In this document: piece after piece, positions 1-55,653 of the stretch
Numbering within the stretch: the first letter of the stretch is position 1
How the letters are laid out: every line of letters begins with the position of its first letter
Assembly (NCBI RefSeq): GCF_045037415.1
Contig: NZ_CP173440.1
DNA length: 64,000 nucleotides
Origin: Escherichia coli
Lineage (GTDB): Bacteria > Pseudomonadota > Gammaproteobacteria > Enterobacterales > Enterobacteriaceae
Reading direction: 5' to 3' (one strand)
The notes under the pieces: model-generated
Told to the model about the DNA's origin: nothing
The model's database searches: none
What the model saw: the letters and a program-made list of their open reading frames with translations, nothing else
Position numbers and translations under genes: made by a program

Positions 1-1
1 A

Positions 2-1873
2 GGCGATGAAGCACCTCCGGAGAAGTTTTCACCCGAACGTGGAGAGGGGCTGAAATACCATCTGAATTTACTGCGACCGCCACGGAAAGTCAGAGAGCCT
101 GCACTGACCTGGACTGAGGCTGTCACACGTTTTGAACAGGCACAGGCGGTGGAGGAAGCCGAGCGTCAGCAACTGGTCGCCAGTTCAGGGCTAACGCATA
201 AAATTGAGTGGCTCGAAGAACAACGAAGAGTGTGGGAAGAAAGGAAGCAAACCGCAACGCTTCAGATTGAGGAATGCCGGAACGCGCTACAGGCGCTCTC
301 TGACAGACTCGCCGCGATGGAAATGACCCTGACCCTGTCCAGTGGAGATCGGGACGAACTCGATCAGCGCATCCACCAGCATGAAAAAAATAAACCCGGC
401 CTTCTGGCTAATCTCTTTTCGCTGGGGAGGATATCGAAGGCATGGTGGGATCGTTATCAACGGCTGACAGACGAATCAGATTCTTTGCGGGCGACGTTGA
501 CTCAGCAACGGCAGGAACTGCAGCTGGCGCAATCAGAAAAACATAATGCAGACAATGAACTCAGGAGCCTTGAGCGTGAGCTCACTCAGGTGATCAGCAA
601 CGGTCAGGCGGTCTGTAAAGAGCAGGAACAGAATAATACCTTGCTGAAGCAGGCTATATCCGATCTGGGAGCCTCCTGGCCGGAGCGGACTGCAACAGAT
701 GAACGAAGGGAGTTGTCAGCACCATGGCTTCATGAGCGCTGGAGAAAGGCGAGGGAAGATGTGTTTATCGCAGCATTAGACGTTCACCGGGCGTTTATTG
801 AAAATAATCCTGTAAAAATGGCCGCTAATATAGGGCTTGCAATGGACTGGTTAAAAGGGCGAAAACTGACCGAAAAACAGGCGGGTCTGGCTCTCGACTC
901 CTTATCTCTGGTCGTCCCGGTTATATCAAGCACCTTTGCGTCCATGCCCCGGATGTTCAGGGATACAGGTCAGGAAGCGATAGGCTGGTTGCTGATTGAT
1001 GAAGCCGGACAGGCACAACCTCAGCATGCGATTGGGGCTATCTGGAGAGCAAAACGCACGGTTCTGGTAGGTGACCCAAAACAACTGGAGCCGGTCAGCG
1101 GTATTCCGTCCACTGTAGAGGGGGCGCTGGGAAAACATTATAAGATCCCGTCCTGCTGGTGGCCCGGAAAAGTCTCAGCACAGATACTGGCAGACCAGAC
1201 GATGAACGTTGGCCCCTATCTGCCCGACCCGGAGTCAGAACAGATTTGGGTGGGCTGTCCGTTACGGGTTCACCGGCGCTGTGATGACCCAATGTTCAGT
1301 ATCAGTAACCATATTGCCTATGACGGGCTCATGGTCCACGGGAAAAAGCCGGGCCTGGTGGATTTCCCTGAAAGCGGATGGCTGGATGTGAAAGGGAGGA
1401 CATGCGAGGGAAACTGGGTAGTGGAGGAAGGGGCGGCAGTGGAAAAGTTACTTTTGGCGTTGCGTCACCAGTATTCACTCACACCTGACGACGTGTTTCT
1501 GATCTCGCCATTCAAGGACTGCGCTAAGCAGCTTAACCGGATCGCAAAGAGGCTGGGATTCAGGATGGACAGAACGGGGACCGTACATAAAACACAGGGC
1601 AAGGAAGCTACTGTGGTTATCCTCGTGCTGGGAGGCAACATAAAAAGTCAGGGGGCGAAAGCCTGGGCGGCGGAAAAACCCAATCTTCTGAACGTCGCGG
1701 TAAGCAGGGCGAAACAACGCATTTATGTCATCGGCGAGCGTGCATTATGGGAGAAGCAACCTTACTTTTCCACGCTGTCCCGGGCACTGGGAAGGCTGGA
1801 TGTGCCGGTGAGCAACAGCAACCCGCGTGCGATGTCATATATGGAAGAGTACTTAACCACTGAATGGCGCTGA
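2..1873 (+). CDS. SF1 (UvrD/Upf1-like) helicase-family protein, C-terminal part; 5' end lies outside the window
   Basis: Reading frame is open from nt 2 to the stop at 1873 (listed ORF 149..1873 is only the first in-window ATG). Motifs LIDEAGQ, VLVGDPKQL, TVHKTQGKE, NVAVSRAKQ match the SF1 helicase C-terminal core; coiled-coil-like region precedes it. Confidence 0.6.
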   Translation, partial: GDEAPPEKFSPERGEGLKYHLNLLRPPRKVREPALTWTEAVTRFEQAQAVEEAERQQLVASSGLTHKIEWLEEQRRVWEERKQTATLQIEECRNALQALSDRLAAMEMTLTLSSGDRDELDQRIHQHEKNKPGLLANLFSLGRISKAWWDRYQRLTDESDSLRATLTQQRQELQLAQSEKHNADNELRSLERELTQVISNGQAVCKEQEQNNTLLKQAISDLGASWPERTATDERRELSAPWLHERWRKAREDVFIAALDVHRAFIENNPVKMAANIGLAMDWLKGRKLTEKQAGLALDSLSLVVPVISSTFASMPRMFRDTGQEAIGWLLIDEAGQAQPQHAIGAIWRAKRTVLVGDPKQLEPVSGIPSTVEGALGKHYKIPSCWWPGKVSAQILADQTMNVGPYLPDPESEQIWVGCPLRVHRRCDDPMFSISNHIAYDGLMVHGKKPGLVDFPESGWLDVKGRTCEGNWVVEEGAAVEKLLLALRHQYSLTPDDVFLISPFKDCAKQLNRIAKRLGFRMDRTGTVHKTQGKEATVVILVLGGNIKSQGAKAWAAEKPNLLNVAVSRAKQRIYVIGERALWEKQPYFSTLSRALGRLDVPVSNSNPRAMSYMEEYLTTEWR

Positions 1874-2140
1874 TAAGCGCCAGGTCTGCCAGCTGTCTAA
1901 TGCGGTATCGACCGCAATACCGGGTGACTATGACATGCCTGAGGGATGATAATCAGTCGGATATCTGCCTCTAATCTTTTCCTGATATTCCCTGCCGGAC
2001 CATCAGCGTATGCAGGTGAGGCAGGGAGGTCTTCCCTCTGGTTTAGCAAGTTACTCATAAACGCTCGCCGACTTGTGAACTGGACACCAAAAGTTGGACC
2101 CTCACCAGGGCAACCAGCGAAGGTGCAGTAAAAGTTACTT

Positions 2141-2755
2141 TTATCTATAGGATTGCCAGGATTGCTGATGAGAGTTGTTAGCGAGCTTACCTGTTACCTC
2201 GGGAGGATTCTGCTTTACACGATCAAGACCGGTCCATGCATTGAGCTGCATCATTTTGCCGTTACGCTGCAGACGCCGGTTATAACGTTCCATAAATTTG
2301 AAAATATAGTTGGCTCTTACGCGAGGCGTTTTACTGTTGTAGTCAGCAATACCTTCAAACACGTTCCCTTTACGGTCAATAATTTTCCGGTGCAGCCACC
2401 ATGTCCCAACCCAAAAAGAAGCACAGGCGTCATAAGCGAGCTCACGCCAGGTAATTGCGGGGAAGTGGGATTTCACCTCAGCCAGATTTGATGAGTTAAT
2501 CTGCATTGGGCCAATATCCCATGTGCCATTGGTGTTAAGGACGAAAGAGCCAATCTTTCCACCTTCGTTATCAAAAAGAGTAAAGACAAGGTCACGGTCA
2601 ATCCCGAAGAAACGCGCGGCGTCAGTTAAACATTCGTTTTTAACCGTTTCGGGTACATTTTGGGGCTTCGGTCGATCCGGTGGGGGATTGAATGCTGCAT
2701 TTGCATTGACGGTTAAAGTGGCGAACAGCACCGCTCCAAAAAATAATCTAGTCAT
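2141..2755 (-). CDS. secreted lytic transglycosylase-like protein (SLT domain)
   Basis: Signal peptide MTRLFFGAVLFATLTVNANA and GPMQIN motif. Start is probably the ATG at 2753-2755, not the upstream TTG used by the ORF track. Confidence 0.55.
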   Translation of the reverse strand: MTRLFFGAVLFATLTVNANAAFNPPPDRPKPQNVPETVKNECLTDAARFFGIDRDLVFTLFDNEGGKIGSFVLNTNGTWDIGPMQINSSNLAEVKSHFPAITWRELAYDACASFWVGTWWLHRKIIDRKGNVFEGIADYNSKTPRVRANYIFKFMERYNRRLQRNGKMMQLNAWTGLDRVKQNPPEVTGKLANNSHQQSWQSYR

Positions 2756-2888
2756 TAACCAGCTCCTCAAAAGTAACTTTTACAGGTTACACGACAACAA
2801 AAAATTTTTTTTCCTATACCGGGGGGAAATGCCTCCTGGTCGGAAAAATATTTTTTTTTGTTTGATACAGTATTTAAGGAGGTAGGAC

Positions 2889-3617
2889 ATGATTAAACCC
2901 ATTGCAGTTGCTCTGATATTGTTAACTCCATCGGCCTATGCTGATGTTGATTTACCTGCAGAATTAAAGGACAAAATTGAAGCCGTTGGTATCAACCCCG
3001 TCTCTGCAGAGAAATCTCCGGTAAGTGGTATTTACTCAGTCTTTTCAAAAGAAGGGACGAGTTACGTCACGTCTGACGGTGAATACATCTTCACCGGAAA
3101 TTTATTCAAAGTGAAAGGGACAGAAGTGGAAAACACCACGGACGAGTTTATCAGTAAAGGGATGCGATCCTATATTGAGAAGCTCGATACTATCACCTAC
3201 AAAGCACCAGATGAGAAATATGTCATCGGTGTTTTTACTGATATCACCTGTGGCTTTTGCCAGAAACTACATAGCGACCTGCAATCCTATCTGGATAAAG
3301 GCATCACTATTAAATTCATCGCATACCCACGTGCCGGGATGAACTCCATGATAGCCCGAAACATGGCATCTGTCTGGTGTGCAGATGACAAACCTGCAGC
3401 TTTAACCAGAGCAATGAAAGGGGATGGTTTGCCTGAAAAGCAACCGACAAAGACCTGCATGGACTCCATTCAGAGCCAATTTAATGCAGGGAACATGTTC
3501 AAACTCTCAGGCACGCCTAGCGGTTTAAGCCTGAAAGGTGAGCCGATGGTATTTGCGGGGTTACGTGACCCTGACCAGATGCTGAACAGCCTGAAAACGG
3601 CCAATCAGAAAAAATAA
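2889..3617 (+). CDS. DsbC-like periplasmic thiol:disulfide isomerase
   Basis: Signal peptide, CGFC thioredoxin-type active site, AAGGAGG ribosome-binding site 7 nt upstream of the ATG. Confidence 0.6.
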   Translation: MIKPIAVALILLTPSAYADVDLPAELKDKIEAVGINPVSAEKSPVSGIYSVFSKEGTSYVTSDGEYIFTGNLFKVKGTEVENTTDEFISKGMRSYIEKLDTITYKAPDEKYVIGVFTDITCGFCQKLHSDLQSYLDKGITIKFIAYPRAGMNSMIARNMASVWCADDKPAALTRAMKGDGLPEKQPTKTCMDSIQSQFNAGNMFKLSGTPSGLSLKGEPMVFAGLRDPDQMLNSLKTANQKK

Positions 3618-3633
3618 CTCTCCGGGAGCAACA

Positions 3634-3945
3634 ATGAAGAAATTAATTGCAGTGGCAGCGGTAGTGGTTGTTTCATTTGCCGCCCAATCCAGCGTTTGCG
3701 GGCCAGTTGCGTGCAAAGTTACTTTCGTCGATGTCGACGGCTCGCAAAAGCCGATCATGCTTCTCGATGACAAAGTTTCAACGCGGAAGAGCTCAATGAA
3801 CCGTGTATTTGATGATGTGTACTCGCACGGCCGTAAGGTCCAGACTGACCTGAAATCAACCACTCCAGCTGCCGGGCATCCTGATAAATCATCACCCGTG
3901 CAAATGAGCAGGGAATTAAGTCCTGTGGTCATCTACAGCGCATAA
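3634..3945 (+). CDS. small secreted protein, unknown function
   Basis: N-terminal signal peptide MKKLIAVAAVVVVSFAAQS; 17-bp gap after the upstream gene. Confidence 0.4.
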   Translation: MKKLIAVAAVVVVSFAAQSSVCGPVACKVTFVDVDGSQKPIMLLDDKVSTRKSSMNRVFDDVYSHGRKVQTDLKSTTPAAGHPDKSSPVQMSRELSPVVIYSA

Positions 3946-3958
3946 AACGGAGTCTCTC

Positions 3959-4300
3959 ATGGGATTAATCAGAACAGTGGTATACGTGGGTATCATTGGA
4001 GGCATCTTTGCCTATACACAAACAAAAGATAGCCTTGAAAATATTTCGGTTCCGGATGCGGAGTTTCCATCGTCAATCTCCAGGAATAACTTTATACAAT
4101 CGACATGGGTGAACGAGCATTACACTTCACTGAAGAATGGCCCGATTGCTGACGGTATATCCAGTATTCTGGATGATGCTCAGGATATCAGGGGGTCTGT
4201 CAATAATGTTGTCATGACGGCCGGTAATGTCGATATCCAGAAGGCTATTCAGGATGCAGTGGATGAACTAGACAGCAATAGCCGTAAATCCAGTAAGTAA
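3959..4300 (+). CDS. hypothetical protein with N-terminal transmembrane helix
   Basis: ORF in an operon-like array with the Dsb genes; hydrophobic N-terminus. Confidence 0.35.
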   Translation: MGLIRTVVYVGIIGGIFAYTQTKDSLENISVPDAEFPSSISRNNFIQSTWVNEHYTSLKNGPIADGISSILDDAQDIRGSVNNVVMTAGNVDIQKAIQDAVDELDSNSRKSSK

Positions 4301-4359
4301 AATGGCTCTCAGAACCATCAGATACGCCTGTTTAAAATAAAATAACTCAGAGATAAATC

Positions 4360-5316
4360 ATGGAAAATAAACAAAGCACTAAAAAACAAACTCTGATTCA
4401 CATCGCCTTGGTAGTAGGTGGTTTTGTTGCTGGTTCGGTAATTTGGGGGAATGGCAGTAATATTATGAACTCAAATGACTCGGCTAATGAGTCTGTCAAA
4501 AAACAGCAAATCGAACTGGCAAATAGATTCAATGCATTAGCTCAAACAGCGAACCAGGTAAATAAGCCAGCCGGTTTAGTCCTGACTGAGCAGGACAAGG
4601 AACTTATTGGAAAAACTGCGGCACAGTATTTGATCGAACATCCAGAGAACCTGGTGGAAGCTGGTAAGCGCCTTGAAGCCAACCGAGATGGTGAAAAAAC
4701 CTCAGACGTTGTGAATACAAAAGACGTATTGCTTGAAACAAAATTCACGCCAAACTACGGCCCAGATAACGCAGATGTAGCTGTTATTGAATTTTTCGAT
4801 TACATGTGTCATTTCTGTCAGCAGTCCAGTCCCGTGCTTGAAAAGGCGATTGCAGAAAATAAAAATGTTCGGACTTTCTTTAAAGACTTCACCATTTTTG
4901 CTGACCGCACACCTATCTCCGGGATGGGGGCAAAAATTGGTCTCTACATCTTTAATAAGTACGGGCAGGAAAAATACTACGAGTTCCATAATAAGCTCAT
5001 GAGTGAAGCGGGTAGGGCAATGAAGGACAGGAAGGACTATACACCTTCTAATCTGGCGGCCCTGGTCAATGGTTTAGGATATAAAGAAATACTGGATCAG
5101 CAAGGTAACTTCTTGCTTACTGTCGAAATGCGCGATCAGCTTCAGAATGTTCTTGATGCAAATATGATGCTGGCGGATAAACTCAATTATAGCGGCACGC
5201 CAGTGTTTATTGTTATGAACATGAAGAACCCGCAAAACAAAACCACAACCATTATGCCCGGTGCGCCTGATTTTTATCGCTTGCAACAGGCAATTGATAA
5301 GGCAAAAGGGAACTAA
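4360..5316 (+). CDS. membrane-anchored thioredoxin-fold thiol-disulfide oxidoreductase (DsbA/DsbG-like)
   Basis: N-terminal TM helix; CHFC (CxxC) motif in the sequence FFDYMCHFCQ. Confidence 0.5.
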   Translation: MENKQSTKKQTLIHIALVVGGFVAGSVIWGNGSNIMNSNDSANESVKKQQIELANRFNALAQTANQVNKPAGLVLTEQDKELIGKTAAQYLIEHPENLVEAGKRLEANRDGEKTSDVVNTKDVLLETKFTPNYGPDNADVAVIEFFDYMCHFCQQSSPVLEKAIAENKNVRTFFKDFTIFADRTPISGMGAKIGLYIFNKYGQEKYYEFHNKLMSEAGRAMKDRKDYTPSNLAALVNGLGYKEILDQQGNFLLTVEMRDQLQNVLDANMMLADKLNYSGTPVFIVMNMKNPQNKTTTIMPGAPDFYRLQQAIDKAKGN

Positions 5317-5413
5317 ACATAGCCCTCCCTTACATAGAAATATAAGCGGAGTGTTTAATTCATTGGCAAAATTCTAGGAGTATGTATGTCGGAGGCTTTC
5401 TTGACAGTTTTCG

Positions 5414-6502
5414 TTGGTGGCGTCGTTTTTGCTGACGTTGTTAGTGTTTAGCGTCATACGAGTACGTAAATGGAAATGCGTCAAAGAAACACTAGCTATA
5501 GTATCTTTTGTATACTTACTTAACTTTATAAAAGGTTACCTGAAAATGAACACCAATGTACATCATGTCCAAGAAAATTTTTATATATCATTGCAGGATT
5601 GTATAAATAAAGAAGAGAAAACAAAAAAAACATGCATTGAGTACTGGCGACGTGAAGCTGAGAGGGCGAAGGAAGAAAGCGCAAGACGTAGAGCACTGTC
5701 TATAAAGATAATTACCGAAAAAAGCATGATTCTTGAAACGTTATTTCTAAATATACAAAAAACAAATGCGCTCAAAGAACAGTATGAAAGAAACCTGATA
5801 GCTAAATGGGGTGGCGTTATTGATGACGATAAGACAAAGGATTATGGTATATTCCTCCCTAGTTTGGAACATTTATCTGCTTATGTATCATGTGCAAAGA
5901 ACGATGAATATAGCAGGGAAGTGCTTTATAACAGACCCGAATTATCAAGGGGTATCAAGTATGACAATAGTTATTACTGCCCGCAGGAAAAAAAATTCAT
6001 CTATATGAGGAATGACAAATTTCGTCCAGATCTTGAACTTCTGACAAATCCTCCTTATCCTGATTTTTGTAAGAATTTACTTTACTTTTATGTCAGGTCA
6101 TTTTCGCTGCATCTCAAAAAAGGAGAGCCTGGGAAACCATTGGAGATAGGTATTCGCAATTCAGTGAGCAAAAACACTTATGAAGACTTGTGTATAGGTC
6201 TGGAAATACTTATGCCATACATGTGCAAAACTGAAAGCGGCAAAGTGATTATTAATGATGAAGGATACTTATCATGTGATAGCTATTATAGAAGCATACT
6301 GGTTAACCCGAAAACAGGGGGGGCTGAGTTAGTTATATACAGAAAGGGGCGCTTTGACCATCGACAGAAACCGAATACACGAGAACCTCGTAAGTGGTTG
6401 AATGAAGATATAATAATTAAAGAATTTCCTAACATACGAATTGTTTTTCTATATATCATATCGTGTCGGTATCAGCAGCACTTCAAAAACAGGGATATAT
6501 AG
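5414..6502 (+). CDS. hypothetical protein
   Basis: Long ORF in low-GC DNA; start uncertain (in-frame ATGs at 5414 and 5546). No recognisable motif. Confidence 0.3.
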   Translation: MVASFLLTLLVFSVIRVRKWKCVKETLAIVSFVYLLNFIKGYLKMNTNVHHVQENFYISLQDCINKEEKTKKTCIEYWRREAERAKEESARRRALSIKIITEKSMILETLFLNIQKTNALKEQYERNLIAKWGGVIDDDKTKDYGIFLPSLEHLSAYVSCAKNDEYSREVLYNRPELSRGIKYDNSYYCPQEKKFIYMRNDKFRPDLELLTNPPYPDFCKNLLYFYVRSFSLHLKKGEPGKPLEIGIRNSVSKNTYEDLCIGLEILMPYMCKTESGKVIINDEGYLSCDSYYRSILVNPKTGGAELVIYRKGRFDHRQKPNTREPRKWLNEDIIIKEFPNIRIVFLYIISCRYQQHFKNRDI

Positions 6503-6607
6503 TAAATGCCTCGTAAAACGTGACCCAGTGGGCATGGAGATAATGAGGTTAATAATAAATGAATTTTACATTTGAACGATGTAAATTTCACTAAACATTA
6601 AATATTT

Positions 6608-7135
6608 ATGGCGGTTTCTATGTTCGAACATAACATTGCTTTTAACGGCATGATGATTGTGATTGTTATCTTATCTTATCTGCTATTTAAAAGTCTTAAG
6701 TCAAAGAAAAGGCTTCAGCATAAGTATGATGAGGTGTTTAAGGCTTTTCATATTGCGAATTCAGAGTACACCGGCGGCCTAAAAGAAGTTTACAAAAACT
6801 TATCTTTAAGCAATGCTCAGTTGCAGTTCCTTGCTGTTTACTTAAATCAAGACACTGTCCAGTTTGATGGCAGAAATATTGTGTGCGAAAAAGAGGATGA
6901 TGTTCAGTATATTCTTTCACTTATATCAGACAGCCATTTTTGGTTGGACAAATCCATGAAAGGAATAAATGAAGTGGTAAATAATACGGACGTAATAAAA
7001 GATATTAAATTATCTCTATCACCGTTCGCTTCGTTGGGTGAGCTGAATGTTATAGATGATGAGTTTAAACTGAAAAATAAAGAGTTTGATGGGTTTGCTA
7101 AACTTAAAGTTAAGTATGATGTAAAAAGGGGGTGA
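6608..7135 (+). CDS. hypothetical membrane-anchored protein
   Basis: ORF with N-terminal hydrophobic segment; stop overlaps the start of the next ORF. Confidence 0.35.
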   Translation: MAVSMFEHNIAFNGMMIVIVILSYLLFKSLKSKKRLQHKYDEVFKAFHIANSEYTGGLKEVYKNLSLSNAQLQFLAVYLNQDTVQFDGRNIVCEKEDDVQYILSLISDSHFWLDKSMKGINEVVNNTDVIKDIKLSLSPFASLGELNVIDDEFKLKNKEFDGFAKLKVKYDVKRG

Positions 7136-7740
7136 AAATGGCAGGGGCATTGTTTTCACTTTCTGCTGGTGGGGTGATGTTTGCAACAGCTGTTGTTATT
7201 ATCATCTTTAGTGCTATGCTATATGACAGTATAGTTAAAAGACGTTCTAAAAATATTAACCCACCAGAGTTTACAGGATCACCTCAACTAGCATCTTGCA
7301 ATTGTTCAGGTGGTACTGTCCTGCTTTATCTTGATTTTGATGGAGTCCTCCATCGAAGGATGAATGAGACATTTGAAAGAATGCCTCTACTGGAAAAAAT
7401 TTTAAAACAATGTCCAGAATTACATATAGTCGTGTCCAGCAGTTGGAGGGAAACAATGACTTTAGAAGGGCTTAAATACCTTTTTCCAGTAGCATTCAGA
7501 CACAGAATAATAGGTGTTACACCTTCACTTCAGGAAGTAAAGGATACCGAATATGTTCGGTACAGAGAGTGCCTTTTACATGCCAGACATATGGGGGTCA
7601 ACAAGTTTATTATCATTGATGATGAATCACACCGTTTTCCACCTGGGTGCGAAAATCTGGTGTCAACGAATTACAGTGAGGGGATGACTGACCAAACAGT
7701 AGCATCTGTCATTATGAAATATTGTCAGTACTTAACATGA
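7132..7740 (+). CDS. membrane-anchored HAD-like hydrolase-family protein
   Basis: ATGA start/stop overlap with the upstream ORF; LYLDFDGVLH resembles HAD motif I (DxDG). Confidence 0.4.
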   Translation: MKMAGALFSLSAGGVMFATAVVIIIFSAMLYDSIVKRRSKNINPPEFTGSPQLASCNCSGGTVLLYLDFDGVLHRRMNETFERMPLLEKILKQCPELHIVVSSSWRETMTLEGLKYLFPVAFRHRIIGVTPSLQEVKDTEYVRYRECLLHARHMGVNKFIIIDDESHRFPPGCENLVSTNYSEGMTDQTVASVIMKYCQYLT

Positions 7741-8013
7741 AGGGATGAATTAAAATGTTAAATATAAGTTTTTTTTGTGGGCGATGAACAGAGAATTAAA
7801 GCCGGTTATTCAGGCAGGGCAGGAACAACCACCATGGATAATCGGCTCCCGGACATGTCCGGGCAAAGAAATCGTAGAACTAGCGCATGACAGTAAGGCG
7901 GGGTAATCGAGGCAATATCTCAACAGTACAAATGAAATAATGCGTTGCTGGGTGGGCACCGGCAGTCAGAGCCAGCGTTCTGCAGCTGCATCAAAGGCTA
8001 AGTGTACCTGCCA

Positions 8014-8670
8014 TTACTCCAGCTCATGAATCAGCATGCCAGCATGTTTAATGTTTAGAGTCGTCATGTTTGCATTAAGGTCTTTCATCATTCTGGTTCC
8101 GCCGCATCGCACATATTCTCTTAATCTTCCATTGTAGGCAGCGCTGGAAGCGATTTTAAGCTGCTTTATCGGACAGGGAAGATAAGCCACTCCTTTAACG
8201 AGATCGTCCTCAACAGCGTTCAGGTAAACGGGAGAGGCCGCAATGATAAAGATATCATGCCGGTACATACTAAACAGTTCCGCAAGGGAAGGGACTTTTC
8301 CAGGCAGTATGGGGTCAGAAGTCAGCATACCCCATATGCTGGCGCTCTTTCTTCCTATCTTTGTAAACGTAGCATCATAAGGGATCGCGGGGTCAGAACT
8401 GTGTCGTAGGCCCAGACCTGCAGAAATAACCCATAAACAGATATGAGAATTAGAGTTTGCAATAGACTTAGCTGTACTCCAGTGAGCACTACAGTATATG
8501 TTTTCCGTTTCCTTAATATCATCATTACATGTAGTGAATCGGGACTGCACAAGACTTTTCCATTGCTGATAGGCAATCTCAGTATCTGTCGTATGGTAGG
8601 GAAACACAGTGTCATGTACAGGTCCTGCTTTCTTTTTCGCGCATGTTGTAATGAGATGAATAGTCGACAT
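8014..8670 (-). CDS. hypothetical protein (gene 4 of a 4-gene minus-strand operon)
   Basis: Co-directional, tightly spaced ORF; no recognisable motif. Confidence 0.35.
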   Translation of the reverse strand: MSTIHLITTCAKKKAGPVHDTVFPYHTTDTEIAYQQWKSLVQSRFTTCNDDIKETENIYCSAHWSTAKSIANSNSHICLWVISAGLGLRHSSDPAIPYDATFTKIGRKSASIWGMLTSDPILPGKVPSLAELFSMYRHDIFIIAASPVYLNAVEDDLVKGVAYLPCPIKQLKIASSAAYNGRLREYVRCGGTRMMKDLNANMTTLNIKHAGMLIHELE

Positions 8671-21333: not shown

Positions 21334-22263
21334 TCAGGCAATAGCGCCTTTACCCACTCCCTCAAAGGCATGGACTTCTATTTTCGCTGCGGGTAAACCG
21401 TGCTCAATTGATTGCCTGATAAATAAAGCCAGTGACTCAACCGTGGTATCACACGGCAGAATATCTACTACCTCAGAACAAAGCATGATTTCAAAGTATC
21501 CCTGAGAACTTCGCCAGGAAGAACATGTCAGCCCCTTATGCCAGTATGTAACGGCACGCGGTGAAAGTGTTGTCACTGTAACGACATCTTCCCGGCTTAA
21601 CAGATAAGCGTTATTCCATCGCGTTGCCCACTCCTGTTCCCACATATGGCTTCGCTCACCATCCACAAAAATTCTGATCGCAGAGCGATGCCCATGCGCT
21701 ATTCTCTGGCAATTTCCGCGGTGTTTTTTCAGTCCATGCGAGTAATGATAACTGTCACCACTAATACTTTCCGGCCGTAACGTTATCGTTATGTCTTTTA
21801 CTCCCTGCGGCAAACACGCCAGTAAATGTTTTTCTATTTGGGATTCAAGGCAACGGGAAGTAATATTATCTGCCTGGACCAGCCAGAAACTCTCCTGCGG
21901 CCCGGAAATAAAACACTGGGTCTCCCCATTCTTACGCAGCATGGCGACTTCCGTCGTAGTCCCCGCATGACTAACAATAATATGACTATTTTGTTCCGGC
22001 ACAATCAGGACATGATCGGCCAGTTTATCAATTTCATGTTTGATACTTTTTTTTGCATGTGAGAAATCCATTACCATTGATTCAGCATTCAGATCCCCTT
22101 CAAGAATAATATCAACGATAAGGCTATCGCCAATCAGTCCGGCCTCCGCATCAAGGAAACTAAAATCCATGACCGTCAGATCATTAATAAAAAGTTTCAC
22201 CGCTACCTCTTTAGTAAAACAGAAAAGCCTCCTCCGCAAAAGGATTGATGAGGCAAGTATCAT
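21334..22263 (-). CDS. T-fold protein with PTPS/QueD-like C-x4-HGH motif
   Basis: NCQRIAHGH resembles the 6-pyruvoyl-tetrahydropterin synthase / QueD metal motif. Start uncertain. Confidence 0.35.
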   Translation of the reverse strand: MILASSILLRRRLFCFTKEVAVKLFINDLTVMDFSFLDAEAGLIGDSLIVDIILEGDLNAESMVMDFSHAKKSIKHEIDKLADHVLIVPEQNSHIIVSHAGTTTEVAMLRKNGETQCFISGPQESFWLVQADNITSRCLESQIEKHLLACLPQGVKDITITLRPESISGDSYHYSHGLKKHRGNCQRIAHGHRSAIRIFVDGERSHMWEQEWATRWNNAYLLSREDVVTVTTLSPRAVTYWHKGLTCSSWRSSQGYFEIMLCSEVVDILPCDTTVESLALFIRQSIEHGLPAAKIEVHAFEGVGKGAIA

Positions 22264-22329
22264 TTTGCTACATTAATAACAAATCGTTAATAATACGGTG
22301 TTATGTTAACGACACCAGCCGAGCCATAC

Positions 22330-22890
22330 TCAGAATTCATTTCGCAACAGCTGATAACCTTCCACCAGTTTGACATTAGTGCTGGCGACTTCTTCTGAAA
22401 ATTGTAAAGAAGCGGGATCCACTTTCGAATAACTTTTAAGATCGGAATCTGGCCCCACGCGTTCCGTTGATGGAATATAGGTGTTCTCAGGCAAGGTAAC
22501 GCCATCCACAACTGCATTATAGCGAATAACACAACCCGTCTGAATATGACAGTTAAACAACACACTGTTGAATCCAATAAATACCCGCTCGTCAACCTGA
22601 CAGGGGCCATGCACTATTGCACGGTGGGCAATAGATGTTCCGCTTCCTATCGTCACTGGCGCGCCGCTTTTTGAGTGAATAACCACTCCGTCCTGAATAT
22701 TAGAGTGGGAATGGATAATGATAGGATCCATATCCCCGTCTGCATTTAGCTCGTCAGCACGGATAACCGCATAGGGTCCGACGTAAACATAATCATGAAT
22801 AATGACACGTCCACAAATTACCGCGGTGGGATCGATATAGGCCTTTGTTGACACCACTGGGGTATGACCTGATGGGTTTTTACGTAACAT
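22330..22890 (-). CDS. gamma-carbonic-anhydrase-like hexapeptide-repeat protein
   Basis: Left-handed beta-helix repeat pattern (…AVICGRVIIHDYVYVGPYAVIRAD…). Start set at the internal ATG (MLRKNPSG) to avoid a large overlap with the upstream gene. Confidence 0.6.
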   Translation of the reverse strand: MLRKNPSGHTPVVSTKAYIDPTAVICGRVIIHDYVYVGPYAVIRADELNADGDMDPIIIHSHSNIQDGVVIHSKSGAPVTIGSGTSIAHRAIVHGPCQVDERVFIGFNSVLFNCHIQTGCVIRYNAVVDGVTLPENTYIPSTERVGPDSDLKSYSKVDPASLQFSEEVASTNVKLVEGYQLLRNEF

Positions 22891-23815
22891 TTTTACTTCC
22901 TTTCCAGTGAATACGGGCAACGGCATTATGGGGATGCAGGCTTTCCTGATGTTCAACCCTGATATCAAATGCTTCACAAAAGGGTGCACAACGAAAAACG
23001 TTATTGAGCCGACGGGCAGCATCTTCGCAAAACATCAGATTCTGACCGTTAGCCACCGCAAAAGCCTGTTCGTCGCTCCGCTTGACAACCGTTTGCACGG
23101 CTGTCCCGAGAGCAACTTCAGCATAATCAATCAGTTCAATCACAGGCAGTGATTTTGCTTCAGGATTAAGACGGATACTCACCCATGCCCAGCTTCGCTG
23201 GCTGTGCGGGGTTGCCGGCATTCCTTTCTCAACAAGCCAGTCGGCTATTTCTGCTGCCGGGAGCCTGTCGATCCTGTTACCAAAGTCTTTGCTAAACTGC
23301 AAACCCGCGACGTGGCGGCTAAGTGCAGCGGAAGCCGGGCAGGTGGACGAATAAGGGATACCCACTTTGAGGGTAACCGTAAAAGATTGCCTGAGTTCGG
23401 CGCTCAGAGTCAGAGGATAAGCTTTCCAGCCGGAGTGATTAGAATTTAACGACTTACGCGACAGTAACAAATCCCCTGAAATCTCAATACTGGCTTCATC
23501 ACTACGTCCCTGATGAGATACCAGAAATGCTTTCAACACATGTTGCAATAATGCCGGTGTGATTTCCCCTTGTGTCAGTTCGTCCAGAAGAAGATAAAGA
23601 CGAGACATATGGATCCCCTTTTCAGCTTCAGGTGAACTGAGAAGGTTTATGCCAGCATTGACCTTTGCTGATACCGGCCTGCCTGCGATGTCTATCGGCA
23701 GGTCAATTTGTTCCATGCCAACCCAGGATAATGACTCGCCCTCACCGTCACCCTTAGTGGACTGAATATCCGGTAGCATTCCGGGGCATAAGGTTTGTTT
23801 GGCTGCAATACTCAT
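22880..23815 (-). CDS. folE2: GTP cyclohydrolase FolE2-like (type IB)
   Basis: LPDIQ… and GIHMSRLY motifs resemble the FolE2/MptA family. Confidence 0.5.
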   Translation of the reverse strand: MSIAAKQTLCPGMLPDIQSTKGDGEGESLSWVGMEQIDLPIDIAGRPVSAKVNAGINLLSSPEAEKGIHMSRLYLLLDELTQGEITPALLQHVLKAFLVSHQGRSDEASIEISGDLLLSRKSLNSNHSGWKAYPLTLSAELRQSFTVTLKVGIPYSSTCPASAALSRHVAGLQFSKDFGNRIDRLPAAEIADWLVEKGMPATPHSQRSWAWVSIRLNPEAKSLPVIELIDYAEVALGTAVQTVVKRSDEQAFAVANGQNLMFCEDAARRLNNVFRCAPFCEAFDIRVEHQESLHPHNAVARIHWKGSKNVT

Positions 23816-23878
23816 ATATACCTGCCTGATCTGATATTTACTCTCATCCCTACCCTGCCCCCTGCCTGAGCCACCGCT

Positions 23879-24301
23879 TTATTTCTTTCGGTACTGAATC
23901 TCAACTTTTTCCTCCTTTGTTTTGGCTTCAATACTTAATTCTGCGGTGGGCCTGAGTAGCAGGCGTTGCAGACCGATAGGTTCGCCTGTATCCCGGCAGA
24001 AGCCATATTCTCCTTTTTCAAGCCGCATAAGCGCTGCATCATATTTCGGCAACAGGCGGCTTTCTCTGTCTATCTGTCTGAACAGCAGACGTAACTGCTC
24101 TTCACGAATGGCGATGTCACCTTCGTCACCCGTTTCTGGATTATCCTGCAGTTGTTGCTTCATCTGGTCTATATGATCAAGCACCTCCTGCCTTTCGTGG
24201 CGGATAAGCCGCCGGAAGTAGTCCTGTTGCACAGGATTCATGTAATCTTCTGGCAGCATCGCCAGGATTTTTTCTCGTTCAGCGCGGGTAGGTTTAGTCA
24301 T
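23879..24301 (-). CDS. dksA2: DksA-like protein lacking the Cys4 zinc finger (DksA2-like)
   Basis: DksA/TraR C-terminal region is present, but only one of the four zinc-finger cysteines remains (GFCRDTG…ELSIEAK). Confidence 0.7.
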   Translation of the reverse strand: MTKPTRAEREKILAMLPEDYMNPVQQDYFRRLIRHERQEVLDHIDQMKQQLQDNPETGDEGDIAIREEQLRLLFRQIDRESRLLPKYDAALMRLEKGEYGFCRDTGEPIGLQRLLLRPTAELSIEAKTKEEKVEIQYRKK

Positions 24302-24329
24302 GTCCTGTACCGATAAAATTGCGTAATGA

Positions 24330-24348
24330 AACGTTATAACATAACATT
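24330..24348. promoter_or_regulatory. Zur-box-like operator upstream of the dksA2-like operon
   Basis: AACGTTATAACATAACATT (reverse complement AATGTTATGTTATAACGTT), about 29 bp upstream of the start codon. Confidence 0.55.
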
Positions 24349-24371
24349 AACTGCCGCTGCAAAATAACCTG

Positions 24372-25571
24372 TTAAGCCAGCCGGGCCACTTTCGTGGGCC
24401 AGGGATCGTGGAAAATCCCCCCCTGCTGCCACCAGAGAATTTCCTCTTCAGTGAGTAAACACTGGCGCAATGCGAGGGCAAAATCGTCAATTTCGCCGCT
24501 CTCGCCAATAACAGTCAGGCGGCAGCGCCGGTCACCAAATCTGCCAGGCATTTTTGCCAGTTGCTGACGGATAGCTGCGCGTTCTTCCTTTGTCAATGAA
24601 TTATCAGTGTGAGTCAGGACCCCGGCTTTCCAGTAGCTTATGAATTCGAGATTGATGCTCCCTGCTGCCTGGTTCCACAATAATGCCAGGTCATCCCTTC
24701 CCGGTAGCCAGAAAAACCCCTTGCTGCGGTAAACGCCTGCGCCCATGAAGCGATGGCAGGTATCCCACAGCCGCTGCGGATGAAATGGACGGTCATCCTC
24801 AATGACCCTCCACGAAATATCGTATTTTTTATCGGTTTCATCCGGCAAAACTGCGTCAATGGCATCCTGAAGCTCATCGATAAGTAACGCCACCCGATGA
24901 AAATCGTAATCCGGCATGGAAAGCAATTCATCCAGCTGTAAATTTCCCCAGGGCACGGCCATAATTGCAACCTGGGGATTAAGGGGATGTATGGCTCTGG
25001 CTACCTCAGTAACCACATAGAAGGGTAACCGGTCGTTTTTGGTTAATAAGAGCTTATTACAGAACATAATCTGTTCTGCCAGCAGGCTTTCCACTCCCCG
25101 GGTTCCTTTATTGAGGTGCTCCTGGAAAACCGGAATAAGCTTCTTTCCACCGTCGTAGTCATCATTAAGCATGACCGTATCAACAAGAGACAAAAATGCT
25201 TTGAGACTTACCTGGGTATGTTCTCGCAGATAGCGGACCAGGGGAAGAGGATGGCTGCTACCTGAGGTTTCCAGTAAAATAAAATCCGCAGACCGTTTTT
25301 CGAGCAGGTTTTTCAGCGCGGAATCCAGCTTCTGGATCCCGCTTCTGCTGCTGATACTGTCTGCTGAAATACTCACAAAATTGTTACTGGCTGCATCAAC
25401 GATTTCTGTGTTGGCTATCAGGACGCCATCCACATCAAGTTCACTCATGTCATTAACGATGACGGATACAGTCATTCGCCGTTTGTGTGCCTGTGTAAGA
25501 AGGTTTTTTAGCAGAGTAGTTTTCCCTGCCCCCAGAAAACCATTAAGGATAATGAGCGGTGTTCTTTTCAT
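24372..25571 (-). CDS. COG0523 (CobW/ZigA/YeiR-like) GTPase paralog with SxSA in place of the CxCC motif
   Basis: P-loop [11 protein letters not shown]. Where family members have GCICC this protein has VSISADS. Start set at MKRTPL. Confidence 0.8.
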   Translation of the reverse strand: MKRTPLIILNGFLGAGKTTLLKNLLTQAHKRRMTVSVIVNDMSELDVDGVLIANTEIVDAASNNFVSISADSISSRSGIQKLDSALKNLLEKRSADFILLETSGSSHPLPLVRYLREHTQVSLKAFLSLVDTVMLNDDYDGGKKLIPVFQEHLNKGTRGVESLLAEQIMFCNKLLLTKNDRLPFYVVTEVARAIHPLNPQVAIMAVPWGNLQLDELLSMPDYDFHRVALLIDELQDAIDAVLPDETDKKYDISWRVIEDDRPFHPQRLWDTCHRFMGAGVYRSKGFFWLPGRDDLALLWNQAAGSINLEFISYWKAGVLTHTDNSLTKEERAAIRQQLAKMPGRFGDRRCRLTVIGESGEIDDFALALRQCLLTEEEILWWQQGGIFHDPWPTKVARLA

Positions 25572-25668
25572 AGCATCCAGCCTTATGCCGCTAAACGTTA
25601 ATGCAATCAAGTTGCAATAATACCGGCTTCCTGCCAAAATTCAAATGACATGACTCGGAGGGGGAAAT

Positions 25669-26121
25669 ATGACAACACCAGTAGCCAAAACGTATGACTG
25701 GAAGCAAACGTTGCGCACACATGGTTTGCGGGCAACGCCATCCACCCTTGCTACACTGCAGTGCCTTGAACATGCCAGCCAGGCCATGAGCCATGACGAT
25801 TTAACTCAGCAACTGGGCGAGCAGGCTCCCGATCGTGTGACCCTTTACCGAATACTGGAACGGCTAATGCAGGTCAGTATTGTCCAGCGTTATACCGACT
25901 CGGCAAGAACTCAGCGTTTCGCTCTGACCCAACGGGCTGCCGTAGGACTTTTTGAATGCGATAACTGCCATCATGTTATTCCTATTGAGCAGGATCCAGC
26001 CCTGGAAGCGGCCATTGAATTGGTAAAATCACATCTCACTGGACATGGTATGACCGAACGGGAAATTACCCTTTCCAGTCATGGTATCTGTCCGGACTGT
26101 AATCGTACTATCACCAAATAA
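25669..26121 (+). CDS. zur: Fur-family metalloregulator, probable Zur
   Basis: CDNCHH…CPDC motifs of the Fur family; divergent from a COG0523 gene and co-directional with the CysRS paralog. Confidence 0.7.
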   Translation: MTTPVAKTYDWKQTLRTHGLRATPSTLATLQCLEHASQAMSHDDLTQQLGEQAPDRVTLYRILERLMQVSIVQRYTDSARTQRFALTQRAAVGLFECDNCHHVIPIEQDPALEAAIELVKSHLTGHGMTEREITLSSHGICPDCNRTITK

Positions 26122-26202
26122 TTTTTTTCTTATTCCGGACGACTGTTAATTAGCGCCAGGCGTGTTCGTGTGCTGCTATCTAAAAATAATGAGGTAAACG
26201 TA

Positions 26203-27585
26203 ATGATTAAACTAACAAACACGCTTGGTATGCAAAAGGAGCTATTAGTTCCGGTTAAAGAGAGCAAAATCGGCATGTATGTATGCGGCGTGACGGTTTA
26301 TGACCTTTGCCATCTTGGGCACGCCAGAACCTTTGTAGCTTTTGATATGATTGTCCGCTATCTGCGTTTTCGCGGATACGATGTGACTTTCGTGCGTAAC
26401 ATTACTGATATAGATGATAAAATTATTCAGCGCGCCCGTGATACGGGAGAGGACTGGCGCAGCCTGACAGAGCGGATGGTGCATGAAATGCACATTGATT
26501 TTGCAAAGTTAGGCATCCTGCCGCCAAACATCGAACCTCGTCCCACAGAGCACATCCCACAAATCATCAGTATGATCGAACGACTTCTGCATCGACAATT
26601 TGCTTACATTGCAGAGAATGGTGACGTCATGTTCTCCACTGCATCGGCAAAAGGCTATGGAAAGCTTTCGGGACAGGATATTACCATGCTTCGTGCCGGG
26701 ACCCGCATCGAAGTGAATGAGTATAAACGCGATCCGCTGGATTTTGTTCTCTGGAAGCGGGCAAAACCCGGCGAGCCCGTCTGGCCATCACCCTGGGGTG
26801 AAGGGAGACCTGGCTGGCATATTGAATGTTCCGCAATGAACTGCCATTACCTTGGTACCCATTTCGACATTCATGGCGGTGGTTCTGACCTGATATTTCC
26901 CCATCATGAAAATGAGATTGCCCAATCCACCTCCGCCAATGATGGCCCTTACGTAAATTACTGGCTTCACACCGGCATGGTGACGGTGAATAAAGAGAAG
27001 ATGTCGAAATCGCTGAATAACTTTTTTACCCTGCGCGATATTCTGAATCGGTTCGATGCCCAGAGTGTGCGCTTCTTCCTGCTAAGCGCACATTATCGTA
27101 AGCCGCTGAATTATAGCGAGGAGAATATTCACCTCGCGCGCGCCTCGCTGACACGGCTCTACACCGCATGCCAGTTCGCTGACGGGTCTCGATCTGAACA
27201 GCACGATGCATGGCGGGCCAGATTCTGTGAGGCAATGGATGATGATTTCAATACACCCCAGGCGCTTGCCATTTTATTTGAACTGACAAGAGAGATTAAC
27301 AGGCTTTGCGGAACGAATGATGATGAAGCCGCAGCACTTGCCACCACGCTGAAAGACCTGGGGAATGTGCTGGGTTTGCTTGAACAATCAGCGGATGCCT
27401 TTTTGAAAAACCGCAGTGATCTTCATCCTGCAGAACTGCAACTTATTGAAAAGTTAATTCACCAACGCAGTGAGGCACGACGTATGGGCAAGTGGGACAA
27501 GGCCGATCGTTTAAGAAATGAATTAGCGGAGCAAGGCATTGATCTTGAAGATGTCGGCGAAAATACCTCATGGCGTATCCGATAA
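26203..27585 (+). CDS. cysS: cysteinyl-tRNA synthetase paralog
   Basis: Full-length class I CysRS similarity (GMYVCG…HLGH, KMSKS). Zinc-ligand positions are conserved ([25 protein letters not shown]). Confidence 0.85.
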
Positions 27586-27620
27586 GTTGTCCCTCTGGAT
27601 GTAAAAAATTTCAATATCAA

Positions 27621-27639
27621 TTGTTATGTTATAACGTAA
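27621..27639. promoter_or_regulatory. Zur-box-like operator
   Basis: TTGTTATGTTATAACGTAA, 17 bp upstream of the flavoprotein start codon. Confidence 0.55.
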
Positions 27640-27655
27640 TGCAAAGGGTAATTTT

Positions 27656-30447: not shown

Positions 30448-30449
30448 GT

Positions 30450-30656
30450 ATGATCCCCAAGACTTACCAGCAATGGTACCGGTGCATCACAGAAGAATGT
30501 GGAATTCCCTTGACGCAGGCATTTATTGCATCCCGTCTGGCAGTCCTTGAGTCCCAAGATCATCAGGAAACCAGACGTTTTGTCTCGCTATATGGGCAAC
30601 AACATCTGAATAGTGTTGTACAGTGGTTCAAAAAAGCTGGGGAAGAATTGTTGTAA
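30450..30656 (+). CDS. small hypothetical protein, translationally coupled to the FeoB-like gene
   Basis: 68-aa ORF starting 3 nt after the FeoB-like stop. Confidence 0.35.
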   Translation: MIPKTYQQWYRCITEECGIPLTQAFIASRLAVLESQDHQETRRFVSLYGQQHLNSVVQWFKKAGEELL

Positions 30657-30681
30657 ATCTGCCCCCTTTTCGCTTTCATAC

Positions 30682-30710
30682 GAAGGCACCCGACAAATGC
30701 GGGTGCCTTC
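30682..30710. terminator. perfect 11-bp stem hairpin between convergent genes
   Basis: GAAGGCACCCG-acaaatg-CGGGTGCCTTC. A near-identical hairpin recurs at 61555-61585. Confidence 0.4.
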
Positions 30711-30713
30711 GAT

Positions 30714-51025: not shown

Positions 51026-51219
51026 CCAACGCCATTCATGGCCATATCAATGATTTTCTGGTGCGTACCGGGCTGAGAAGCGGTGTAAGTGAACTGCAGT
51101 TGCCATGTTTTACGGCAGTGAGAGCAGAGATAGCGCTGATGTCCGGCAGTGCTTTTGCCGTTACGCACCACCCCGTCAGTAGCTGAACAGGAGGGACAGC
51201 TGATAGAAACAGAAGCCAC
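50944..51219 (-). CDS. insA: IS1 InsA
   Basis: 91-aa product matches IS1 InsA (…[32 protein letters not shown]…). Confidence 0.9.
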
Positions 51220-51252
51220 TGGAGCACCTCAAAAACACCATCATACACTAAA

Positions 51253-55651: not shown

Positions 55652-55653
55652 GA

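Follow-up and report, generated by a model that had tools for sequence, protein, structure and literature searches.

A proposed assembly-support module and a separate Upf1-like helicase at the probable distal end of an IncHI1B plasmid Tra1 region

A stretch of 64,000 nucleotides of Escherichia coli DNA (contig NZ_CP173440.1 of assembly GCF_045037415.1), referred to here as the window and numbered from its first letter, opens with a block of genes at positions 2-7740 encoding a helicase, an exported lytic transglycosylase, two Dsb-type oxidoreductases, a HAD-superfamily phosphatase, and several small proteins. We are confident, though short of certain, that this block closes the Tra1 region of an IncHI1B plasmid at its distal end and that it combines a support module with a helicase gene separate from it. 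The module (2141-5316 and 6620-7740) reads, on the strength of its sequence, as a backbone assembly-support unit of the H-type (MPF_F) type IV secretion system (T4SS), of a kind known since R27, because it has a fixed place after traG, is under purifying selection like that on tra genes, and has R27 orthologues that are derepressed together with tra genes. Neither the sequence of the block nor the module is new: the block is identical to that of hundreds of deposited plasmids, and in R27 the transglycosylase/DsbC/DsbA module received its name over 20 years ago and is covered by array and mutant data. The features of the block, several of whose proteins are given by their length in amino acids (aa), are these:

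2-1873, plus strand: Upf1-like SF1B helicase, C-terminal 624 aa (residues 490-1113 of 1113), an unbroken frame of 624 codons
2141-2755, minus strand: secretion-system-type lytic transglycosylase, predicted to be exported, orthologue of the bfpH/trbN-like muramidase R0130 of R27 (NCBIfam TrbN and IagB; PDB EtgA)
2756-2888, no strand: divergent intergenic region of 133 bp between the transglycosylase and dsbC-like genes, with a strong Shine-Dalgarno sequence, AGGAGG, before dsbC and an inverted repeat
2889-3617, plus strand: periplasmic DsbC-type disulfide isomerase, orthologue of R27 R0131 dsbC (Pfam, NCBIfam, PDB)
3634-3945, plus strand: 103-aa exported protein with C22 and C27 just after the signal peptide, a weak positional homologue of R27 R0132
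3959-4300, plus strand: 113-aa protein with an N-terminal membrane anchor, at the position of R27 R0133
4360-5316, plus strand: membrane-anchored DsbA-family thiol oxidoreductase of the BcfH/ScsC type, orthologue of R27 R0135 'dsbA' (Pfam, PDB)
5546-6502, plus strand: 318-aa cytoplasmic protein (G+C 36%, nine Cys), outside the conserved module
6620-7135, plus strand: 171-aa protein (open reading frame, ORF) with a membrane anchor at its N-terminus, its gene being translationally adjacent to that for the HAD phosphatase
7138-7740, plus strand: membrane-anchored HAD-superfamily phosphatase, HAD_SAK_2 (Pfam PF18143), orthologue of R27 R0129

The block follows the transfer genes of an IncHI1B plasmid

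Within the 20 kb upstream of the window lie genes for the coupling protein TraD, the relaxase MobH, MobI, TraF, TraH, and TraG (the TraG-N protein), and farther upstream are DUF4400 (TraJ-like), S49 peptidase, and NERD genes, arranged as they are in R27. After traG come five small ORFs and then the helicase gene; the traF-traH-traG run ends ~6.5 kb before the transglycosylase gene, and all that separates them is this variable slot of small ORFs and helicase.

An earlier reading of the window made from its letters alone (the sequence-only reading) had called a helicase C-terminal region, a secreted transglycosylase, and two Dsb-type oxidoreductases, and all of these genes are present where it placed them. 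It had also proposed that the helicase gene is cut by the window edge and that a conjugative element extends upstream. Both proposals proved correct: the gene, for 1113 residues, begins 1468 nt before the window, and the upstream check that it had named, for relaxase and transfer genes as against ordinary chromosomal genes, turned up the transfer genes listed above. Its overall description, a block resembling conjugative-element or island cargo, was right about the kind of element and the identities of the genes, but 'cargo', 'island', and the membership of the helicase have to be given up. The transglycosylase/Dsb/HAD unit is a backbone module that stands right after trhG/traG in every IncHI subgroup examined, and its R27 counterpart is co-regulated with tra genes; an integrative conjugative element (ICE) or island does not fit matches that are all plasmid and none chromosomal; and the helicase, which had been counted in a typical accessory set, sits in a variable slot and differs from its neighbours in G+C and divergence.

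A search of plasmid records with window positions 1-7800 returned 913 matches, all of them plasmids with IncHI1B/IncFIB replicons. Most (860 of the 913) are from Klebsiella, and many are 100% identical end to end; by typing, 593 are conjugative, and 308 are non-mobilizable while retaining the block wholly or partly. The plasmid phvKpST395_NDM1_1657 (NZ_CP072809.1), a 388-kb circular molecule typed as IncFIB/IncHI1B/IncR, MOBH, MPF_F, and conjugative, is 100% identical across the 7.8 kb and shows a single mismatch across the first 27.8 kb of the window. In 5,426 complete E. coli genomes there are 22 places with the block, every one of them on a plasmid and none chromosomal. The window as a whole is a pNDM-MAR-type IncHI1B conjugative backbone fused to pLVPK-type virulence-plasmid DNA, and marks the hybrid plasmid of this kind that is carried by high-risk K. 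pneumoniae clones.

Partial copies of the block also occur. Several virulence plasmids and transconjugants (hits H40-H46 and H80 of the search) retain just window positions 3182-5333 or 3182-7800, that is, the 3' part of dsbC through the dsbA or the HAD gene, and in one plasmid a helicase remnant is joined to traH. These copies in non-conjugative relatives look like decayed remnants of the transfer region.

The module has a fixed position in IncHI plasmids and is under purifying selection

The IncHI1B plasmid was compared with R27 (IncHI1), the IncHI2 plasmids pST95-32-1 and pSH111_227, and pRAO166a and pKP20-558-1, the last two being taken as IncHI5-type although database typing names their replicon IncU. 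Both IncHI5-type plasmids keep the order traF-traH-traG, small ORF, helicase, transglycosylase (minus strand), DsbC-like gene, two small ORFs, and DsbA-like gene, after which come an insertion sequence, a small ORF, and the HAD gene. In R27 and the IncHI2 plasmids, trhG is directly followed by the HAD and transglycosylase genes (both on the minus strand), the DsbC-like gene (plus), two small ORFs, and the DsbA-like gene (plus). The module is core to all IncHI subgroups examined, and could on that account be a target for Dsb inhibitors directed against plasmid spread. Over their full lengths, the transglycosylase, DsbC, DsbA, and HAD proteins are 67%, 50%, 41%, and 41% identical to those of R27, and the catalytic residues are invariant.

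Measured against pRAO166a, the transglycosylase and the DsbC homologue have ratios of nonsynonymous to synonymous substitution rates (dN/dS) of 0.05 and 0.07, in the range of TraF (0.05) and TraH (0.03). The comparable genes of the block span 0.05-0.26 against this diverged relative, which is purifying selection; the 318-aa and 171-aa ORFs were left out as not comparable, and for the DsbA-like gene, whose product retains 82% amino-acid identity, the ratio is undefined because dS is saturated.

The R27 counterparts are co-regulated with transfer genes

On the R27 array, the unit is represented by R0129 (unnamed), R0130 (bfpH/trbN-like), R0131 (dsbC), R0132-R0134, and R0135 (dsbA) (PMC7366339). 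In an htdA mutant at 25 °C, R0129, R0130, and R0131 were up 19.5-, 20.6-, and 13.0-fold, and R0132, R0133, and R0135 were up 8.1-, 10.3-, and 6.0-fold (PMC7366339 supplement). In the same mutant trhG rose 7.7-fold and the adjacent mucB just 1.5-fold, and R0129, R0130, and R0135 were induced 3.1-3.8-fold at the transfer-permissive temperature (PMC7366339). Deletion of R27 dsbC lowers transfer about 10,000-fold and does so only in a dsbC-null host, as reported in PMC10838148. By analogy with R27, the IncHI1B module would be expected to share both the co-regulation with tra genes and the dsbC conjugation phenotype.

The architecture is alike in the two plasmids as regards the place after trhG/traG, the divergent transglycosylase and dsbC-like genes, the two small ORFs, and the DsbA-family gene, and it differs in several details. 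The HAD gene lies beside the transglycosylase gene in R27 and, in the IncHI1B plasmid, after the DsbA-like gene, behind the 171-aa ORF; the R27 lipoprotein R0134 is absent from the IncHI1B module; the IncHI1B DsbA-like protein has about 36 residues more than that of R27 after its membrane anchor; and the 318-aa ORF and the 1113-aa helicase are additions relative to R27. In R27, mucAB comes right after dsbA, whereas the IncHI1B plasmid carries umuDC elsewhere.

Thioredoxin-fold isomerases and SLT-type transglycosylases also accompany other MPF_F systems and help to assemble them, namely TrbB and Orf169/P19 of F, Orf206 and Orf248 of Rts1, and s054 of SXT (PMC10838148, PMC12624023), and reviews of T4SS assembly describe the opening of murein by VirB1-type enzymes and the formation of disulfides by system-encoded enzymes (PMC12624023). 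The requirement for them varies. Rts1 transfer needs both Orf206 (thioredoxin fold) and Orf248 (SLT domain), s054 is essential for SXT while the transglycosylase is dispensable, and the F and R27 phenotypes appear only in dsbC-null hosts (PMC10838148).

Several observations speak against a role for the module in assembling this particular transfer system. The dispensability of the SXT transglycosylase is one of them. The functional data all come from R27, Rts1, F, and SXT, and PMC10838148 describes the R27 transglycosylase as never tested. The module may be largely redundant in Klebsiella, since the R27 dsbC phenotype was seen only in the absence of host DsbC. Among proteins of known structure, those closest to the DsbA-like enzyme act in fimbriae (BcfH) and copper tolerance (ScsC) rather than in conjugation; the HAD gene, which is beside the transglycosylase gene in R27 and IncHI2, has moved here; and the 113-aa ORF has no detectable sequence similarity to R0133, its positional counterpart in R27.

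A model for module function

We propose that the exported transglycosylase would cut a local gap in the murein through which the envelope-spanning H-type machine and its pilus could be inserted, while the DsbC-type isomerase and the membrane-tethered BcfH/ScsC-type enzyme would form and reshuffle disulfides in periplasmic Tra proteins. By bringing its own Dsb enzymes, the plasmid could make transfer less dependent on the Dsb system of the host. The module would thus work in the manner of TrbB and Orf169 of F and of Orf206 and Orf248 of Rts1. It is accompanied by the two small exported ORFs and by the HAD phosphatase with its membrane anchor.

TraH has six cysteines, TraF has a C180-x-x-C183 motif, the transglycosylase has two invariant cysteines, and the 103-aa ORF has two. 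We infer that TraH, TraF, the transglycosylase, and the 103-aa ORF are candidate substrates of the Dsb enzymes, as may be TraN and TraU, which would be encoded elsewhere on the plasmid; in F-type systems, the cysteine-rich TraN and TraU are in principle substrates of disulfide enzymes.

The transglycosylase and the divergent intergenic region

The transglycosylase matches NCBIfam TrbN (1.2e-21) and IagB (2.9e-12), with scores of 77.7 and 46.4 bits that fall under the respective equivalog cut-offs of 246 and 208, and for this reason it appears by sequence to form a distinct IncHI subfamily. Its score for Pfam SLT (PF01464), 20.1 bits, is marginally under the cut-off of 21.3. In the alignment with the EtgA structure 8URN (3.3e-8), the N-E and D-I-G-x-M-Q-I-N motifs line up and E64 falls on the Glu of the EtgA W-N-E-S motif; E64 is invariant in five IncHI orthologues, and both E64 and D80 are invariant in the orthologues of R27 and IncHI2, the latter also 67% identical to the protein. 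From what is known of the family, we take Glu64 to be the catalytic acid and Asp80 to be of catalytic type as well. With its hydrophobic core and A-x-A site, the N-terminal sequence, MTRLFFGAVLFATLTVNANA/AF, resembles a signal peptide when judged by eye. The protein is thus like the EtgA/IagB/TrbN/VirB1 group in being a small, exported SLT-type enzyme with a catalytic Glu in an N-E motif, a D-I-G-x-M-Q-I-N motif, and a secretion machine as neighbour, and differs from it in scoring under the TrbN and IagB cut-offs and in its C-terminal tail of ~40 residues.

An inverted repeat in the divergent intergenic region, GTAAC-N8-GTTAC (window 2776-2793), is conserved by alignment in the IncHI1B and IncHI5-type plasmids and not in R27 or IncHI2, and may be an operator. 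The promoter scan gave no convincing sigma-70 consensus in region 2756-2888; across 1-8200 it was not informative, with 22 promoter-like sites against 15.0 +/- 3.6 expected and none in the transglycosylase-dsbC intergenic region. A terminator scan of 1-8200 found none at any obvious operon end.

The two Dsb-type enzymes

The DsbC homologue has a signal peptide, an N-terminal dimerisation domain (Pfam DsbC_N, 6.9e-12), and a thioredoxin domain (Thioredoxin_2, 2e-13). It aligns with the Salmonella and E. coli DsbC structures at 1e-41 to 1e-38 (PDB 4I5Q, 1.6e-41), with its active site C121-G-F-C124 lined up with the CGYC of DsbC and with a second cysteine pair, C164/C190, and T209-P210 on their DsbC counterparts; these are invariant. 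The protein is 50% identical to that of R27 and 46% to that of IncHI2, with the four cysteines and Thr-Pro retained throughout. Its NCBIfam DsbC match (6.2e-54, 182.7 bits) falls under the equivalog cut-off of 215 (PRK10877), and it is on this account assigned, by sequence comparison, as a plasmid paralogue distinct from the housekeeping chromosomal DsbC. Compared with TrbB of F, which to our knowledge is without the DsbC N-terminal dimerisation domain, the IncHI1B protein is a full DsbC homologue that includes this domain. Assignment to the IncA/C DsbP type was considered and rejected, the match being only 6.5e-10. A second DsbC, of 283 aa, has been noted in the related plasmids pNDM-MAR and pSIM-1-BJ01 (PMC6657655).

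The DsbA-family protein matches Pfam DSBA (1.9e-12) and Thioredoxin_4 (7e-9) and has a CxxC motif, C150-H-F-C153, at an invariant position and a T280-P281 loop. It is 41-42% identical to the R27 and IncHI2 proteins, and the CxxC and Thr-Pro are invariant with respect to R27. The closest match of known structure is BcfH (PDB 7JVE, 6.3e-33), which aligns over residues 75-317; residues 75-107 fall on the N-terminal trimerisation region of BcfH, and ScsC_N is matched at 3.9e-3 (17.3 bits against a cut-off of 25.8). BcfH itself is a trimer with oxidase and isomerase activity (PMC11653150, PMC11634996). Like Salmonella BcfH and trimeric ScsC, the plasmid protein has a DsbA-type thioredoxin domain with its helical insertion and a Thr-Pro loop; its N-terminal helical extension is a candidate trimerisation region, and the protein is probably oligomeric. 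Unlike them, it retains a membrane anchor that looks uncleaved and a linker of ~40 residues, and the genetic neighbour of its gene is a secretion system, not an operon for fimbriae or copper tolerance.

Small ORFs and the HAD phosphatase

The 103-aa ORF is 27% identical to R27 R0132 (E 0.001), with a dN/dS of 0.16; that of the 113-aa ORF against pRAO166a is 0.20. The 318-aa ORF is placed outside the conserved module because IS5 or Tn5403 occupies its position in the two IncHI5-type relatives. In these relatives a hypothetical ORF, matched by position, likewise stands directly before the HAD gene, as the 171-aa ORF does here. None of these four ORFs (3634-3945, 3959-4300, 5546-6502, and 6620-7135) has a match in Pfam, NCBIfam, PADLOC, or PHROGs. 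The HAD phosphatase is assigned by PF18143 (3.8e-23, 82.8 bits against a cut-off of 27.5) and phrog_1818 (2.9e-15), and its motif I, D66-F-D68-G-V, is intact and conserved with R27 R0129.

The helicase is separate from the module

The slot between trhG and the module is empty in R27, and in IncHI2 it holds a 429-aa HNH_2 endonuclease (6763-8052 of locus L011, from pSH111_227; also in L010), which suggests that it is a hotspot for exchangeable nucleic-acid-targeting genes. The G+C of the helicase gene is 52.4%, that of the genes from traF through the DsbA-like gene is 42-50%, and that of the three ORFs beyond is 34-39%. The helicase is 79% identical to that of pKP20-558-1 and about 58-59% to that of pRAO166a, from which its neighbours diverge far less (82-94% identity); its dN against pRAO166a is 0.34, compared with 0.03-0.11 for the neighbours, at a dN/dS of 0.13. 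Since the slot is variable, the G+C higher, and the divergence far above that of the neighbours, the helicase is separate from the conserved module and was separately acquired.

The full gene lies at 18532-21873 of the extracted locus (L001). The encoded protein matches Pfam AAA_11 (6.7e-18) and AAA_12 (7.4e-9); helicase motifs II (DEAGQ, 823), III (GDPKQ, 847), V (TVHKTQG, 1017), and VI (VAVSR, 1055) are within the window, and the start, the N-terminal domain, and the Walker A motif (residue 353) are upstream of it. Foldseek matches the core, which has a two-RecA fold, to SETX/Sen1, Dna2, Upf1, Aquarius, IGHMBP2, and ZNFX1 (E 1e-15 to 1e-9), and the protein is a member of the Upf1-like SF1B family. 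The full-length AlphaFold2 model (pLDDT 85.6, pTM 0.79) has, in the segment between Walker A and motif II, long helices at 554-619 and 633-715 (~65 and ~80 residues), which we read, from the model, as an antiparallel coiled-coil hairpin of roughly 190 residues at ~527-715 (window ~113-679). Only 35 residues lie beyond the helicase core at the C-terminus, and the N-terminal ~320 residues match no solved fold.

A profile search with the N-terminal domain against 1.84 billion representatives gave 1,538 cluster-representative hits. Those of full length (~1,000-1,300 aa) carry the domain N-terminally, and the short ones have the appearance of fragments; no other architecture containing the domain was found, the seven longest relatives having the same helicase layout and no PLD. 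The family comprises about 1,500 cluster representatives, whose sampled members share a fixed architecture and are scattered over mobile elements and defence islands.

The protein also matches PADLOC MkoC (PDLC03924, 3.2e-70), residues 319-1078 aligning without a break into separate hits with 241-952 of the 1136 profile positions, long insertion included. Mokosh is defined by a helicase together with a PLD nuclease (10.1101/2022.12.12.520048), and membership was rejected: neither the helicase, its neighbours, nor its longest relatives have a PLD Pfam match or motif. There is no HxK(x4)D motif in the helicase, the N-domain alignment shows no invariant His or Lys, and no PLD gene is among the neighbours. 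Like Mokosh type II MkoC, the plasmid protein has a Upf1-like/COG1112-type SF1B core and belongs to single genes that are often in islands; it differs in having no PLD domain and in its distinct N-terminal domain of ~320 residues. Automated defence finders may nevertheless call it 'Mokosh type II' though the defining nuclease is missing. We found no literature joining Mokosh and Klebsiella plasmids.

Possible roles of the helicase

Besides the IncHI plasmids, full-length homologues of 40-55% identity were sampled in seven places. Three (42-43% identity) are two genes away from an FlhC-type activator and a MobH relaxase, in Delftia/Acidovorax elements that also carry a DsbC gene. One homologue (L013), from a Chromobacterium island, has ResIII, DprA-like, and Lamassu-type genes for neighbours, another (L006) is beside a P2-like prophage and ThiF/JAB genes, and three are solitary chromosomal genes. 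No partner gene is common to the eight contexts examined.

A mobile single-gene conflict function is somewhat favoured over that of a core transfer helicase by the variability of the slot, the rapid divergence, the occurrence in islands, and a core like that of MkoC; we hold this reading tentatively and at rather less than an even chance. Such a helicase could serve as a sensor or motor in the manner of Mokosh, using its helicase core and coiled-coil arm to act on nucleic acid that invades or competes, with the N-terminal domain as an effector or recognition domain. The stronger proposal, that it is an unrecognised single-gene conflict system within the transfer region of globally spreading Klebsiella resistance-virulence plasmids, with a conserved N-terminal domain in place of the PLD nuclease, is doubtful; if it is true, the helicase would act against phages or rival plasmids, or guard the incoming plasmid strand. 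Two results tell against a conflict function: the relaxase-linked contexts, three of the eight sampled, would fit a role in DNA transfer as well, and the helicase showed neither a nuclease nor any other effector domain.

Alternatively, the helicase may be a dedicated DNA-processing motor of MOBH transfer, serving MobH relaxases that have no helicase fused to them by unwinding or translocating the transferred strand, in which case 2-7740 would be one transfer unit. The gene does lie within Tra1, with traG on one side and the support module on the other, and is under purifying selection, and the Delftia/Acidovorax homologues near an FlhC-type activator and a TraI_2/MobH relaxase, with a DsbC gene in the element, would fit. 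However, R27 and IncHI2 run the same MOBH/MPF_F system without such a helicase, the IncHI2 slot being filled by the HNH endonuclease; homologues also stand alone in chromosomes where the surrounding 10 kb has no transfer genes; the G+C and divergence are unlike those of the neighbours; and the three relaxase-linked cases all belong to a single group of closely similar Comamonadaceae elements and are not independent. We consider this motor role unlikely.

Cargo or island origins of the block

The transglycosylase and Dsb genes might instead be adaptive cargo for the host envelope, promoting the folding of fimbriae or virulence factors or tolerance of copper or oxidative stress. The DsbA-like protein has its nearest relatives of known structure in a fimbrial operon (BcfH) and in copper tolerance (ScsC), virulence-plasmid DNA is also present in the window, the 308 non-mobilizable plasmids of the 913 retain all or part of the block, and some transconjugant virulence plasmids keep only 3182-5333 or 3182-7800. 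This explanation is nonetheless very improbable: the place after traG is fixed in all IncHI subgroups examined, including plasmids without virulence genes; the R27 unit is co-regulated with tra genes and the adjacent mucAB is not, and R27 dsbC has a conjugation phenotype; and the partial copies have the look of decayed transfer-region remnants.

A MobH relaxase, MobI, and MPF_F genes are a hallmark of SXT/R391-type ICEs too. Location of the block in a chromosomal ICE or genomic island, for which this SXT/R391-like gene set and the helicase homologues in integrated elements could be cited, has a negligible probability given that 913 of 913 records are plasmids, that 0 of 22 E. coli places are chromosomal, and that the window matches, collinearly, a circular plasmid of 388 kb.

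Other features of the window

The window is collinear with NZ_CP072809.1, which carries ~2.4 kb more DNA at window ~47-49 kb, where IS1A is annotated. Its coordinates are consequently offset by ~2.48 kb past roughly 48 kb, and positions there were re-derived from the ORFs of the window. ISCfr12 (ISL3 family) and ISKpn21 (ISNCY family) stand back to back at 10097-12896, ~2.4 kb past the block, and mark the border between the IncHI1B backbone and the virulence-plasmid DNA; in pKP20-558-1, ISKpn21 is likewise near the end of the corresponding backbone stretch.

Just beyond the block, a 218-aa ORF (8014-8670, minus strand) matches PADLOC DpdC (1.4e-42, profile positions 1-234 of 319) and Pfam DUF6884 (2.8e-5). 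DpdC is part of the Dpd 7-deazaguanine DNA-modification defence system. dpdA and dpdB are not beside this ORF, of which RefSeq annotates a 315-nt piece only, and the gene looks orphan or truncated.

By annotation, window ~15789-31937 carries second copies of genes for zinc-dependent housekeeping enzymes (hemB, dihydroorotase, thrS-like, carbonate dehydratase, folE2, dksA, a COG0523 GTPase, zigA, cysS, and hisI) together with two Fur-family repressors; the cluster resembles the set of zinc-sparing (Zur-type) paralogues on the virulence plasmid pLVPK. At 54689-56220 (minus strand) are a type I-E Cas6/CasE gene and a truncated DEAD/DEAH helicase gene, adjoined by IS5 at 56332-57300, and NZ_CP072809.1 has a second CasE and a longer copy of this helicase at 29.6-32 kb. 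Finally, an ORF for an rmpA-like mucoid regulator (51214-51843, minus strand) reaches a stop after 196 codons, the reference gene being 630 nt long, and this allele may be frameshifted or truncated.

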